A DNA stretch of 64,000 nucleotides from the NCBI GenBank assembly GCA_038213805.1, contig JBBQSO010000003.1:63648-127647 (forward strand), read 5' to 3'. Numbering within the stretch: the first letter of the stretch is position 1; the number at the start of each line of letters is the position of its first letter. The DNA is from Planctomycetota bacterium. Its GTDB lineage: Bacteria > Planctomycetota > UBA11346. The notes beneath the pieces were generated by a model. The model did no database searches, had not been told where the DNA came from, and was given only the letters and a program-made list of their open reading frames with translations. Both the position numbers and the translations under genes were made by a program. Positions 25,621 through 31,270 of this stretch are shown piece after piece.

Positions 25621-25665
25621 CAAGCGATTTCCCGTCTTGAAAATCGCTTGCCCGGCACCTAGACT
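25621..25665 (+). promoter_or_regulatory. Sigma70-type promoter with overlapping inverted repeat (putative operator)
   Basis: TTGAAA (25637-25642), 17-nt spacer, TAGACT (25660-25665). Inverted repeat CAAGCGATTT-N10-AAATCGCTTG at 25621-25650. Confidence 0.65.
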
Positions 25666-25830
25666 GACCATCCGCAAACTACCCCCTGAATTCGACTTCG
25701 CGCCGAAGTCGCATCCCGCTGTCCGGCACTTGTCGTACGGCGTTTCACCTTCGGGCATGGAAGCATACGGTTCCGCGGCGCGGCGGACGATCCGGATCGC
25801 CGGCACGTCGGAACCTGTTCTGGAGCGCGC

Positions 25831-27228
25831 ATGAGCAGTCTCACGCTTGACTACACCAACTGCCTCTCGGATGCCATCGGCGCAACCCATGGCCTGACCA
25901 AGCCCGAGGTCGATACGTTGGTGGCCAAGTTCCCCAAGCACCACGAGAACATCGAGGAGCTGCGCAGCACCGGGGAGAGCAGTTTCTTCGACCTGCCCTA
26001 CCAGGACATCAGCGAGCTCAAAGCCCTGCTCAAGAAGCACCAGGGCAAGTGGGACAACCTGGTGGTGGTGGCGATCGGTGGCAGCGCGTACGGCGCCAAG
26101 GCCCTGCTCACCGCGCTCGGCCACTCCGCCTTTAATCTCCTCGAGGGCAAGGCGCGCCGGGGTGCCCCGCGCGTGCACTTCGCCGCCAATCCCGATCCCC
26201 TGGCTCTGACCGAGCTGGTCGAGGTCCTCGACCTCAAGAAGACCCTCTTCCAGGTGGTCAGCAAGACCGGCACCACGGTCGAGACCAATGCCATGTTCCT
26301 GTGGTTGCAGGAGCTGCTCAAGAAGAAGGTCGGTAAGAGCGCCCTCTCCAGCCAGGTGGTGATCACCACCGATCGCGAGAAGAGCCCCCTCATCGAGATC
26401 GCCCGGCAAGAGAAGATCGACACCCTGAATGTGCCGTCGAACCTGACCGGCCGCTTCGGCGTGCTCGGCAACAGTGGCCTGTTCACTGCCGGCATGGTCG
26501 GCATCGACGTCGCCGCACTGCTTGCCGGCGCCGCCGACATGGACAAGCGCTGCCGCCACGGCGAGGCCTTCCGCAACCCGGCTTACATGCACTCGCTGGT
26601 GCACTACCTGTTGACGCGCAAGCGCCGCAAGACCATCCACGTGACGTTCAGCTTCAGCAACCGGGTGCACGGCATCGGCGAATGGTACTCGCACCTGTGC
26701 GCGGTCAGCCTCGGCAAGATGCTCAACCGCAAAGGCAAGGCCGTGCACGTCGGGCCCAGCCCGGTGTCGGCGCTCGGCACCTTCGACCAACACGGGCAGA
26801 TGCAGCTCTTCGCCGAGGGCCCCTTCGACAAGGTGGTGACCTTCATCACCGTCAAGGACCACGGCGCCCAGCTTATCGCACCCGCCGCCTACCCCAAGGT
26901 CGAGACCGTCGGCTACCTCGGCAATGCCGACTTCGCCGCCATTCTCGACAACGGCTACCTGGGCGCGGAACAGCACATCACCGCCAGCGGTCGGCCGAAC
27001 ATGACCATCATGCTCGACAAGGTCGAGGCCGGCCCGGTCGGCGGGCTGATCTACCTGCTGCAGCTTTCGACGGTGATGAGCGCCGAGCTCTACGGCATCG
27101 ATCCCTTCGACCAGCCGGGCGTCGAGCACGGCAAGCACGCCTCCTTCGCCCAATTCGGCCGCGCCGGGTTCGAGGACCACGCCAAGCGCATCAAGGATTA
27201 CCGCGGCAAGCCGCGCAAGACCTGCTGA
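25831..27228 (+). CDS. pgi: Glucose-6-phosphate isomerase homologue lacking the catalytic Glu
   Basis: IGGS, SKTGTTVET, GRF, DQHGQMQL and DPFDQPGVEHGK are present, but QLxxESxGK reads HLCAVSLGK. GGAG RBS. Confidence 0.88.
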   Translation: MSSLTLDYTNCLSDAIGATHGLTKPEVDTLVAKFPKHHENIEELRSTGESSFFDLPYQDISELKALLKKHQGKWDNLVVVAIGGSAYGAKALLTALGHSAFNLLEGKARRGAPRVHFAANPDPLALTELVEVLDLKKTLFQVVSKTGTTVETNAMFLWLQELLKKKVGKSALSSQVVITTDREKSPLIEIARQEKIDTLNVPSNLTGRFGVLGNSGLFTAGMVGIDVAALLAGAADMDKRCRHGEAFRNPAYMHSLVHYLLTRKRRKTIHVTFSFSNRVHGIGEWYSHLCAVSLGKMLNRKGKAVHVGPSPVSALGTFDQHGQMQLFAEGPFDKVVTFITVKDHGAQLIAPAAYPKVETVGYLGNADFAAILDNGYLGAEQHITASGRPNMTIMLDKVEAGPVGGLIYLLQLSTVMSAELYGIDPFDQPGVEHGKHASFAQFGRAGFEDHAKRIKDYRGKPRKTC

Positions 27229-27349: not shown

Positions 27350-28342
27350 ATGCCCCTCTTCGACCAGCTCAACGAGCTTCTCCACCCGGTGCGGTGGGTG
27401 ATCCTGGTGGTGGCCGTGCCGCTGCTGGTGATCTATGGCCGCGTGCTGGCCGGCGCCCTGTTCGGCAGCGCCGCGCCCGGCACCAAGACCGCCTCGATCG
27501 TTGGCGGCAAGCCGGTGGTGCCGGTGCGACGCAACCCGGGCGCTGGTCCGCGGCCTGGCGGCGCGAAGACGCCCACGCCGATCCCGCCCGGCGGCAAACA
27601 GGAGGTCCTGCCCAGTTCGCTTGAGGCCGGCATCGCCGGCCACGCGCAGCGCGCCGCCGCCAAGACGGCCAAGATACCCGTCCCGCCCGCACGCGCCAGC
27701 GACAGCCAGGCGCCCACCGACATCATCCCGCCGTCGGTGCCGCGCGGCGCGACCCCACCGGCGACCGCGCGCATCGACAAGCCGGTGCCGCCCGAACCGT
27801 CCATCATCGGTTCCGGCACCAGCGACGATGCTGCCCTCGCCGACCTCTTCGGCGGCGTGGCCAAGGCCGAGGCCCCCGCCGGTCCGCAGCCGACCGAAAC
27901 CGAGCTGAACCGCCGCAAGGCCACGCGCATGGAGGAACTTGGATTCCACCACAGCATCGCCAGCGACACCGTCACCGGCGCACCCGGCGCAATCGCCCCC
28001 ACCGGCGACACCAGCAGGCCGGCCGAGCCGCCGCGCAGCCAGACCGCCGAGCTGACCTCGATCCTGGAGCGCATCGACAAGTTCCTCGCCGAAGACCAGC
28101 CCGCCCCCGGCGCCGAGAAGCCCACGGACAAAGTCACCGACAAGGTCGAGGCCAAGCCGCCCACCACCACCATCACCGTCAAACCGGCCGGTGAGCCGGC
28201 CGCTGCCAGCGCCCCGCCCGAGAACCCGGCGACCAAGAAGACCCAGCCGCTGTGGGCGCGCGCCGACGTGCAGGATGAGGACCTCGAGAAGAAGGATCCC
28301 CCCATGGATCCGAAGCCGCCGGAGCAGCAGCGGTTGTTCTAG
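27350..28342 (+). CDS. Single-pass membrane protein with long Pro/Ala-rich disordered tail
   Basis: Start set at ATG 27350 after AGGA. N-terminal hydrophobic helix, low-complexity tail, GC3-rich codons. Confidence 0.75.
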   Translation: MPLFDQLNELLHPVRWVILVVAVPLLVIYGRVLAGALFGSAAPGTKTASIVGGKPVVPVRRNPGAGPRPGGAKTPTPIPPGGKQEVLPSSLEAGIAGHAQRAAAKTAKIPVPPARASDSQAPTDIIPPSVPRGATPPATARIDKPVPPEPSIIGSGTSDDAALADLFGGVAKAEAPAGPQPTETELNRRKATRMEELGFHHSIASDTVTGAPGAIAPTGDTSRPAEPPRSQTAELTSILERIDKFLAEDQPAPGAEKPTDKVTDKVEAKPPTTTITVKPAGEPAAASAPPENPATKKTQPLWARADVQDEDLEKKDPPMDPKPPEQQRLF

Positions 28343-28353
28343 GGAAATAAGTG

Positions 28354-28402
28354 GGCTGATGGCTGATGGCTGATGGCTGATGGCTGATGGCTGATGGCTG
28401 AT
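28354..28402. repeat. Tandem heptamer array (GGCTGAT)x7
   Basis: Seven perfect units read directly. Confidence 0.95.
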
Positions 28403-29025: not shown

Positions 29026-29826
29026 TCAGCGCTTGCGCGCCGCGATCTTCGCCGGCGCCGCCTGCGTGCTGCGCGGGATCGGCGACGAACCCGAGTCGTC
29101 ATCATCGTCGCGCACCACGGGATAGGTGGGCCCGACGTAGAGGTCCTCATCGCTGGTCGTGACGTAGCCGGAAGGTGAGTGTACCGGCCCGCGCGCAGGC
29201 GTGGGGTCGGCAGGTGCTACCAGCTCGTCCGCGACCTCGGCGGTGGCGGCCTGGGCGCCGGCGGCCGCGGTGATCGGCGCGGTGGTCTTGTGCGCAGGCC
29301 GGTTGTCGAGGCGGCGCTGATTAAGGCGGTGGATGGTGAGATTGACCTGCACCACCGTCTGTTCGGGCATCAGCTCGGCGAAGCGGCGGCGCAGCAGGCG
29401 CTGGCAGAAGCGGTTGCGCTCGGTGACGTTGGCGACCTCCCAGAGCGTGACGATGGCCTCGATCACGATCGAGCGCTTCACGCGATCTTCGAAGACGCGC
29501 ACGGTGGCCTTCTTGACCTCGGACTCGCCCTCGATGGCGCGCGTCAGGGCCTCCTCGATGGCGATCAGGCTGACCGAGATCTTGCCGTTCTCCGTGGTAT
29601 AGCTGATGTCGCGCGCGCGGCGGAAGACATGCCACCAGCGCAACAGCACGGCCAGCGGGCAGAGCAGGAAGACTAGCGCCAGCCCGGCCATCACCATGTT
29701 GCCGTTGGGGGTGCGCAGGAAATCGAGGATCTGCACGTTGATCATCGGCTCGGTGCAGGCCGCGAGCAGCCCGGCGCCGACCAGGAAGGCCGTGATGTAG
29801 AGCAGCGCGTTGAAGACTGCACTCAT
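29026..29826 (-). CDS. Membrane protein, AmaP (alkaline shock response membrane anchor)/Asp23-like
   Basis: Two N-terminal TM helices, then TTENGKISVSLIAIEEAL...EVKKATVRV, which resembles AmaP; disordered tail. Confidence 0.65.
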   Translation of the reverse strand: MSAVFNALLYITAFLVGAGLLAACTEPMINVQILDFLRTPNGNMVMAGLALVFLLCPLAVLLRWWHVFRRARDISYTTENGKISVSLIAIEEALTRAIEGESEVKKATVRVFEDRVKRSIVIEAIVTLWEVANVTERNRFCQRLLRRRFAELMPEQTVVQVNLTIHRLNQRRLDNRPAHKTTAPITAAAGAQAATAEVADELVAPADPTPARGPVHSPSGYVTTSDEDLYVGPTYPVVRDDDDDSGSSPIPRSTQAAPAKIAARKR

Positions 29827-30049: not shown

Positions 30050-31270
30050 ATGACCGACCAGCGCCACGATGCCCGCTACCAGGCGCGCGGAGTCTCCGCC
30101 GGCAAGGCCGAGGTGCACGCCGCGATAGCCCGCCAGGACGGCGGACTATTCCCCGGCGCCTTCTGCAAGATCGTCCCCGACGAGCTGACCGGCGACCCCG
30201 AGCACTGCCTGGTGATGCACGCCGACGGCGCCGGCACCAAGTCTTCGCTCGCCTACCTGGCCTGGAAATCCGGCCTGAGCGACCGCACACCCGAGCAGAT
30301 CTGGGCCGGCATCGCCGAAGACAGCTTGGTGATGAACCTGGACGACTGCGCCTGCGTCGGTGCACTCGGCCCGTTCCTGATCTCCAACACCATCGGCCGC
30401 AACGCCAAACGCATCCCCGGCACGGTGGTCGCGGCGATCGTCGATGGCTACCAGAAGCTCTGCGAGCGGCTCACCGCGCTCGGCATCCCCTGCCGCATGA
30501 CCGGCGGCGAGACCGCCGACGTCGGCGACCTGGTGCGCACCATCATCGTCGACAGCACCGTCACCACGCGCCTGCTGCGCGACCGCGTCATCGACGCCGG
30601 GCGCATGGCCCCCGGCGACGTCATCGTCGGCTTCAGCTCGACCGGCAAGGCCGCCTGGGAGCACGAGCCGACCACCGGCATGGGCTCCAACGGCCTGACC
30701 AGCGCCCGCCACGAGCTGCTCGGCGGCGGCTACCGCGAGCGCTTCCCGGAGACCTACGCCCCCGAGGTCGACGGCGACCTGATCTACTGCGGGCGCTACC
30801 GCCTGGGCGACACCCTGCCCGGCGACGCGCGCTTCACCGTCGGGTCGGCGCTGCTCTCGCCCACGCGCACCTACCTGCCGCTGATCAAGAACCTGCTCGA
30901 GCGCTTGCCGCGCAGCGACATCCACGGCCTGATCCACTGCTCCGGTGGCGGCCAGAGCAAGATCGTGAAATTTGGTGGTCGCAAGCGCAAGCAGGGCAAC
31001 CGCTACGTGAAGGACAACCTCTTCCCGGTTCCGCCGCTGTTCGCGGCACTGAAGGACGCCACCGGCCAGTCGTGGGCCGAGATGTACTCGGTCTACAACA
31101 TGGGCCACCGCCTCGAAGCGGTCGTCCCGCCCTCGTGCGTCGACGCCTGCCTGGCGGCCGCGCGCGATTCGCACATCGACGCACAGGTGGTGGGGCGGGT
31201 CGAGGGCAATGATGAAGCCGGCAACGAGGTGGTGGTGCGGACGGCGCATGGCGAGTTCAAGTATCGCTGA
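30050..31270 (+). CDS. purM: Phosphoribosylformylglycinamidine cyclo-ligase (AIR synthase)
   Basis: RGVSAGK.EVH, HADGAGTKS, GGETADVGD, GSNGLTSARH, HCSGGGQ, YNMGHR. Start set at ATG 30050 (30041 also possible). Confidence 0.92.
   Translation: MTDQRHDARYQARGVSAGKAEVHAAIARQDGGLFPGAFCKIVPDELTGDPEHCLVMHADGAGTKSSLAYLAWKSGLSDRTPEQIWAGIAEDSLVMNLDDCACVGALGPFLISNTIGRNAKRIPGTVVAAIVDGYQKLCERLTALGIPCRMTGGETADVGDLVRTIIVDSTVTTRLLRDRVIDAGRMAPGDVIVGFSSTGKAAWEHEPTTGMGSNGLTSARHELLGGGYRERFPETYAPEVDGDLIYCGRYRLGDTLPGDARFTVGSALLSPTRTYLPLIKNLLERLPRSDIHGLIHCSGGGQSKIVKFGGRKRKQGNRYVKDNLFPVPPLFAALKDATGQSWAEMYSVYNMGHRLEAVVPPSCVDACLAAARDSHIDAQVVGRVEGNDEAGNEVVVRTAHGEFKYR

Follow-up and report, generated by a model that had tools for sequence, protein, structure and literature searches.

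A PGI-Fold Protein Without the Catalytic Glutamate in a Class of Planctomycetota and Its Candidate Non-Catalytic Role

Introduction

Few enzymes are as conserved as PGI, whose known additional roles are cases of moonlighting by the active enzyme. The window analyzed here (the whole stretch of 64,000 nucleotides, from contig JBBQSO010000003.1 of a Planctomycetota bacterium) encodes a PGI homologue, P0001, with valine at the place of the catalytic glutamate. This locus raises the question of whether such a gene is a sequencing error or a decaying duplicate, an isomerase whose base has moved, or a protein kept for something else. A preliminary description of the gene inferred a new role rather than decay, and two findings described below agree with that inference: the genome has a canonical pgi at another locus, and orthologues share the altered motif.

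The Gene and Its Putative Control Sequences

The reading frame encodes 465 amino acids with zero internal stops, and GGAG lies 5 nt upstream of its ATG (Table 1); a full-length frame and a ribosome-binding site had both been claimed at the outset; the first holds, and GGAG, being Shine-Dalgarno-like, is a candidate for the second. The gene had also been credited with a promoter of its own. One sigma-70-like site does lie upstream, but the evidence is weak because 0.3 such matches are expected by chance. Contigs of X1 and X2 span the Val codon with zero differences and are not counted as independent, since they possibly derive from the source sample itself. One sequencing run, presumed to be RNA, contained only short pieces of relatives.

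Table 1. Coordinates of the variant gene, its segments, and its neighbor (positions are those of the window)
Feature	Position	Strand	Basis
Sigma-70-like promoter, TTGAAA-17-TAGACT	25637..25665	+	Consensus match only
GGAG, Shine-Dalgarno-like	25822..25825	+	Sequence
Variant PGI-fold gene, P0001	25831..27228	+	465 aa; Pfam, AF2 model, structural alignment to 2Q8N
N-terminal segment, residues 12–39 (IGATHGL ... KxPxHH), newly near-invariant	25864..25947	+	Alignment
GIGGS loop, residues 81–88, relaxed	26071..26094	+	Alignment
Phosphate loop, residues 144–149, partly kept	26260..26277	+	Ser/Thr counts at 144, 146, and 149
Basic helix/loop, residues 249–270 (NPAYxHxLxxYLLTRKRRKTxH), newly near-invariant	26575..26640	+	Alignment
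Fixed switches of the active-site helix, from His288 in place of Gln to Val292 in place of the catalytic Glu	26692..26706	+	Homologue counts
Basic hairpin, residues 293–311 (SLGKMLNRKGKAVHVGPxP), NRKGKAVHV part newly near-invariant	26707..26763	+	Alignment
Helix end, residues 412–423 (LSTxMSAELYGI), newly near-invariant	27064..27099	+	Alignment
C-terminal Cys465, at least 97% in family, not seen in canonical relatives	27223..27225	+	Alignment
Class-specific neighbor gene, candidate partner	27350..28342	+	Hydrophobic N-terminus, Pro-rich low complexity, C-terminal QQRLF

Loss of the Catalytic Glutamate

In PGI, the Glu serves as the base for isomerization, and mutating it seriously affects activity (PMC9436075); the His acts in ring opening, the hydroxyls of the sugar substrate are contacted by Gln, Glu, His, and Lys, and the phosphate is clamped by Ser/Thr hydroxyls (PMC9436075, PMC8354745). 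In P0001, the codon GTC (Val292) is found at 26704–26706 within WYSHLCAVSLGK, as first read, and the codon CAC (His288) at 26692–26694 replaces the neighboring Gln of canonical PGI. This register is obtained without gaps when WYSHLCAVSLGK is set against WYRQLWAESLGK of Thermotoga maritima PGI (2Q8N), the best match among solved structures, and in an alignment with the genome's own long PGI, H288 corresponds to Q352 and V292 to E356. The other motif readings of the preliminary description (AIGGS, SKTGTT, TGRFG, DQH, and DQPGVEHGK) are likewise present in P0001.

Residues were counted in 121 homologues, namely the query and the best 120 of 678 protein-search matches, at 50–96% identity. Within this set, position 292 is Val in 120 sequences, Ala in one, and Glu in none, while 119 have His and two have Gln at position 288; the motif with Val is common to these homologues, and the Glu that, as had been considered at the outset, orthologues might have carried is absent from all 121. 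R208, the Arg of GGR(F/Y)S, is kept in 119 of the 121, and K435, the Lys of GVExGK, in 115 of 120, P0001 included. The ring-opening His of DQH, H321, is present in P0001 and in 91/121 overall, with Tyr in 24/121. At other positions of the same best matches, S85 is Ala in 36/116 and Glu in 2/116, G207 is Asp in 21/121, and Ser or Thr occupies positions 144, 146, and 149 in 107, 101, and 117 of 118 sequences, respectively.

Outside the family the Glu is nearly constant. When 1.84 billion representatives were searched with a profile, 11,368 matched, of which the best 150 were examined: four family members or fragments are followed by an abrupt fall in score, and the Glu is present in 145 of the 146 nearest non-family rows. 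Counted by residue in the 148 further profile matches, two of which are family fragments, Q is found in 142 and E in 145. Furthermore, QLxAESxGK is found in the 10 best-scoring short PGIs of other Planctomycetota families and in six more. Judged from these sequences, Val292 is neither an error nor a sign of decay, being common to homologues down to 50% identity.

Three degenerate short PGIs, P0171, P0217, and P0250, lie outside the family and have GIGGS, DQHSQ, or GVExGK altered; P0217 is without the Glu, and P0250 represents a cluster of seven. They are possibly independent pseudo-PGIs.

Fold and Predicted Structure

The sole Pfam match in P0001 is PF00342, at 95.4 bits against a cut-off of 22. 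All seven NCBIfam PGI models stay below their cut-offs, the best reaching 247.6 bits against 487, in a scan that did not include canonical near relatives. In the ESM Atlas, P0001 leads only to generic PGI clusters. A structure prediction, which the preliminary description had recommended, gave an AlphaFold2 model (85-row alignment) with a pLDDT of 93.7, and this model has the short, Thermotoga-type PGI fold over its whole length: it superposes on 2Q8N with a TM score of 0.89, an rmsd of 1.9 Å, 35% identity, and a Z score of 47.8, model residues 1–465 being matched to chain residues 0–447 with 447/449 aligned. By sequence and fold, P0001 belongs to the PGI family, yet it lacks the catalytic Glu by which the enzyme is defined.

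When P0001 was refolded in AF2 without residues 1–23, pLDDT fell from ~92 to 74 around residues 254–263 and from ~86–91 to 72–75 around residues 314–333, and the 250–264 helix became shorter, with the C-terminal tail still confident. Because the removal lowers confidence at these two places, the models suggest that the segments support each other, in indirect agreement with a contact between the N-terminal segment and the RKRRK helix.

The C-terminal Cys465 was also considered as an active-site plug or a substitute for the Glu. This is disfavored: the structural alignment reaches the last residue and runs to the end of 2Q8N, which suggests that the tail takes an ordinary path and does not enter the pocket. 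In wheat PGIs, the C-terminal domain of one protomer touches a beta patch on the other (PMC9436075); by analogy, Cys465 may join the patch of newly conserved residues across a dimer.

Distribution and the Second, Long PGI

Contigs related to the variant locus are assigned to Planctomycetota or a taxon within it. The class was examined through 48 genomes, belonging to one family and 18 genera, and the variant gene is present in 46 of them, as 45 long matches and a 36-residue piece at a contig end (G020); G049 (61% complete) and G053 (89% complete) gave no match. No match across the class genomes contains an internal stop.

The second, canonical pgi for which the preliminary description had suggested a search exists in the genome of the window. 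It encodes a long PGI (G000:C8:17814-19457, equivalent to L002:1402-3045, minus strand) with the motifs GIGGS, SKTFTT, GGRYS, QQVDMESNGK, QHS, and DQWGVELGK, and it is 25% identical to the variant; its best solved match is the wheat cytosolic PGI 7E77 (E = 1.5e-236). The long PGI is found, sometimes in pieces, in 47 of the 48 class genomes (not in G008, 83% complete), and together with the variant in 45. Its catalytic positions are invariant in all 30 of the best long PGIs aligned. In a phylum sample of 300 genomes, 285 of them outside the class, 59 of these 285 have a short-type PGI (E ≤ 1e-100) and 58 a long-type PGI (E ≤ 1e-80), with G107 alone in both groups when the two were compared by hand, more distant PGIs falling below these thresholds. 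From this pattern we infer that the short copy is ancestral in the class and was then relieved by the long PGI.

Some individual genomes deserve mention. The long form occurs at 67–74% identity in four of six sampled genomes of another planctomycete family, f22. G016 is the only genome listed with the variant and the long PGI on one contig (L103, G016:C262), where ~8 kb holding PLD-like, GT2, LytB, and ScpA genes separates the two. In G004, the long PGI consists of four separate pieces on two contigs (C23:5931-6716 and C124:4543-5133), reflecting either an assembly problem or a broken gene.

Inverted Conservation of Pocket and Outer Segments

Constraint was compared between 115 full-length family members (six fragments dropped) and 138 canonical relatives, from which 10 rows without the Glu or with lengths outside 420–520 had been dropped; the control is 100% conserved at the Glu column because it was chosen on Glu. 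The family, at a mean identity of 62%, is less divergent than the control, at 41%. Among the 45 control columns that are at least 95% conserved, the family keeps 21, switches four (Y275F, Q288H, E292V, and S322G, all fixed), and relaxes 20, including G81, S85, K145, S146, G207, D319, Q320, H321, and Q428. In the opposite direction, conservation reaches at least 97% in the family but stays below 60% in the control at 55 columns, which lie outside the pocket or next to it and cluster in residues 12–39, 249–270 (YLLTRKRRKTxH), 297–309 (NRKGKAVHVGP), and 412–423 and at Cys465. In variability rank, the old pocket loops are mid-variable (0.43–0.60), whereas the new segments are among the most conserved parts of the protein (0.15–0.27). 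The mean net charge is +3.9 in the family versus −4.9 in the canonical relatives.

Within the pocket, R208 (98%), K435 (96%), E151 (97%), and H288 (98%) are still constrained. Nevertheless, some members have lost much of it: S85E is found in P0097 and P0103, in which His321 and Lys435 are gone, R208H in P0116, and R208S with K435Q in P0119, and in all four YLLTRKRRKT is intact, as are the NRKGKAVHVGP hairpin and the terminal Cys. The family-wide view modifies two earlier claims. Among the concerted active-site changes that had been proposed, the positions altered in AIGGS and TGRFG simply drift across the family, and the only fixed switches are the four listed above. Similarly, the His of DQH and the phosphate loop, described as kept, are so in P0001, but across the family the His stands at 74% and the loop is relaxed; a universal sensor role is therefore weaker, and weight moves to the new surface.

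P0001 and its counterpart in G010 differ by 58 nucleotides and four amino acids (one pair, counted by hand), which points to strong purifying selection. From their conservation, H20, H38, H254, H270, H306, C11, and C465 could form a metal site.

Possible Functions

A new, non-enzymatic binding job is the most likely explanation because the catalytic Glu has been lost and near-invariant basic residues outside the pocket have been gained. The specific reading that we favor, with about an even chance of being correct, is that the variant is a non-catalytic descendant of a short-type PGI that acts as a binding module through the new basic patch, the pocket being secondary. On this proposal, the ancestral short PGI of the class would have been relieved of catalysis by the long, plant-cytosolic-like PGI, and the function under selection would now lie in a new patch of the large domain, basic and rich in His, and no longer in the sugar pocket. 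Dimerization in the manner of PGI, a homodimer in which one subunit supplies the His to the other, has probably been retained; a heterodimer with the long PGI is also conceivable. A single outer surface is presumed to comprise the N-terminal segment together with the RKRRK helix and the KGKAVHV hairpin. It would bind a conserved acidic partner, which may be a protein or else a polyanion, for instance nucleic acid; among proteins, the leading candidate would be the product of the adjacent gene, which is acidic, disordered, and membrane-anchored. In many lineages the relic pocket may still accommodate a phosphate group, and in some it would be dispensable. A fully idle pocket is opposed by the constraint on R208, K435, E151, H288, and Ser/Thr149, which exceeds prediction and is perhaps partly structural. 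In addition, some of the newly conserved residues are hydrophobic and may belong to core packing, and the exposure and contiguity of the patch are themselves deduced.

It is possible, if rather doubtful, that the variant is a sensor of a sugar phosphate or phospho-anion, in which the remodeled pocket binds its ligand without turnover and switches the outer patch; this would be compatible with the binding-module reading, but the pocket would then be essential. The four fixed switches (F275, H288, V292, and G322) alongside the 21 canonical columns kept, the retention of R208 and K435, and the mostly kept phosphate-clamp Ser/Thr at 144, 146, and 149 suit a sensor. The variation at S85, at G207, and at H321, which is lost in 30/121 (the query and the best 120 of 678 matches), does not, nor do the several members that look pocket-dead while their outer patch is intact, and Pfam detects neither a DNA-binding nor an output domain. 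New chemistry is unlikely. Here His288, which lies a single turn of the helix away from where the Glu was, would serve as acid/base on another sugar phosphate, in an anomerase, epimerase, dehydratase, or isomerase. The Q-to-H and E-to-V changes are coupled and 98–100% fixed, with R208 and K435 kept, and the equivalent Gln touches substrate hydroxyls (PMC9436075). Reportedly, the SIS fold has also been adapted to different reactions, such as that of the NagS dehydratase (PMC12680351). An enzyme, however, should hold its pocket tightest, the reverse of the variability ranks given above, and conserved sugar-pathway genes are absent nearby in the loci scanned.

That the protein is still a PGI with a migrated base, whether His288 or an acid or Cys from elsewhere such as Cys465, has a very small probability. 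The fold is intact, R208 and K435 are kept, the terminal residues are modeled with high confidence, and databases often name it glucose-6-phosphate isomerase; against this, the tail apparently follows the ordinary path along 2Q8N and not into the pocket, all seven NCBIfam PGI models lie far under cut-off, a complete PGI exists in 47/48 genomes, and about a quarter of the 121 best homologues lack the ring-opening His. Decay of a duplicated gene, to which the drift of the pocket loops might point, or a mistake in sequencing or assembly has virtually no chance of being the explanation and is refuted by the orthologues: internal stops are absent, 104 of the 115 full-length members measure 463–465 aa, the one pair compared has an excess of synonymous changes, and Val is shared far beyond close relatives.

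Comparison With Known Systems

Relative to short-type PGI (PF00342; T. maritima 2Q8N, Geobacillus 1B0Z/2PGI, and Bdellovibrio 7NSS), the variant has the same fold over the whole length and shares the Arg, the Lys, SxGK, and the Glu of the SKSGxTxE loop. It differs in the Glu-to-Val and Gln-to-His changes, in the relaxed GIGGS, GGRFS, and DQHSQ, in the 55 new near-invariant columns, and in coexisting with a second, complete PGI.

For the sensor reading, a comparison would be the glucokinase regulatory protein, which we take to keep the SIS fold for binding, as RpiR-type SIS sensors presumably also do. The regulators RccR and NanR reportedly resemble the variant in having an SIS fold kept for binding and not for catalysis. 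Unlike RpiR, HexR, RccR, and NanR, the variant is a full-length PGI descendant without an HTH domain, and its pocket is not uniformly conserved. An RpiR-type SIS regulator, with an N-terminal HTH and a single SIS domain, was rejected as an identity for P0001, which has PF00342 as its only Pfam match and aligns to PGI along the whole chain.

Moonlighting PGIs, among them autocrine motility factor/neuroleukin as well as the Lactobacillus crispatus adhesin, similarly use a PGI surface for binding (PMC8354745); these are still active enzymes, whereas the variant is a separate gene with its base lost and a new surface fixed. A review of pseudoenzymes reportedly describes a lost catalytic motif on a retained fold, as here, and notes that catalytic residues may migrate (PMC10211241). 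A retained fold, a lost catalytic residue, and maintained selection are all found in the P0001 family. Among the pseudoenzymes in the parts of the open full-text literature that were accessible, there is no PGI example, and in that literature on inactive PGI, catalytic mutants, and planctomycete pseudoenzymes, with most subscription papers outside this scope, no description of the variant family came up.

A bacterial class appears to keep, nearly universally, a dedicated base-less PGI in which new residues are fixed more strictly than the old active site. It would clearly exemplify how an enzyme central to glycolysis has probably been redirected to non-catalytic work. The family could expose unknown cell biology of an uncultured class of Planctomycetota. 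It is also an annotation trap, its database names being glucose-6-phosphate isomerase or hypothetical protein.

The Downstream Neighbor and Surroundings of the Locus

The neighbor protein has a hydrophobic N-terminal segment, likely a membrane anchor, and a Pro-rich low-complexity region. Its conserved motifs are short, namely RMEELGFH, ELxxILxRIDxxL, WARxDxxDED, and, at the C-terminal end, QQ(K/R)LF. Distant neighbor proteins are strongly acidic and end in KQLDLF (as in G016) or in KQQNLF followed by a few residues. Zero Pfam matches were obtained for the protein, and nothing above 0.8 in the ESM Atlas. The gene is present in 44/48 class genomes and in 0/285 genomes outside the class, where a fast-evolving disordered protein could escape the search. 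In the 43 genomes with both genes, counted by hand, 28, from 10 genera, have the neighbor on the same strand as the variant and no more than ~2.5 kb downstream of it; in ~9 it lies elsewhere, and the remainder are cut by contig ends. It is the most constant gene beside the variant, and the other genes around the variant vary between loci; a sugar-pathway operon was not seen around the variant among 42 hand-picked ORFs in the five loci scanned.

The neighbor protein is accordingly treated as a candidate binding partner on the strength of gene order and sequence; the mere co-occurrence of the two genes says little because both are class-wide. A complex prediction for P0001 with neighbor residues 165–330 scored 0.00 in two runs, for which controls were not folded, and carries no weight either way on whether the two bind. 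The QQRLF/KQLDLF end of the neighbor presumably resembles the beta-clamp-binding motif QL[SD]LF, and we take its ELxxILxRIDxxL helix to resemble the N-terminal helix of PopZ. It is conceivable, though quite improbable, that the two make up a hub specific to the class, in which the basic patch of the variant docks on the acidic motifs of the neighbor and its relic pocket reads the level of hexose-phosphate, which would couple carbon status to a membrane-tethered scaffold of DNA replication or the cell cycle.

Directly after the neighbor gene, at 28354–28400, lies a tandem GCTGATG repeat, for which contig depth is very high in each of three metagenome runs and which is therefore considered a widespread intergenic repeat. 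A 266-aa ORF at 29026–29826 on the minus strand, with two hydrophobic segments and zero Pfam matches, is conserved close by in ~11 related loci and presumably resembles AmaP/Asp23-type proteins. Farther downstream, at 30050–31270 on the plus strand, an AIR synthase (PurM)-related gene is syntenic in ~10 close relatives.
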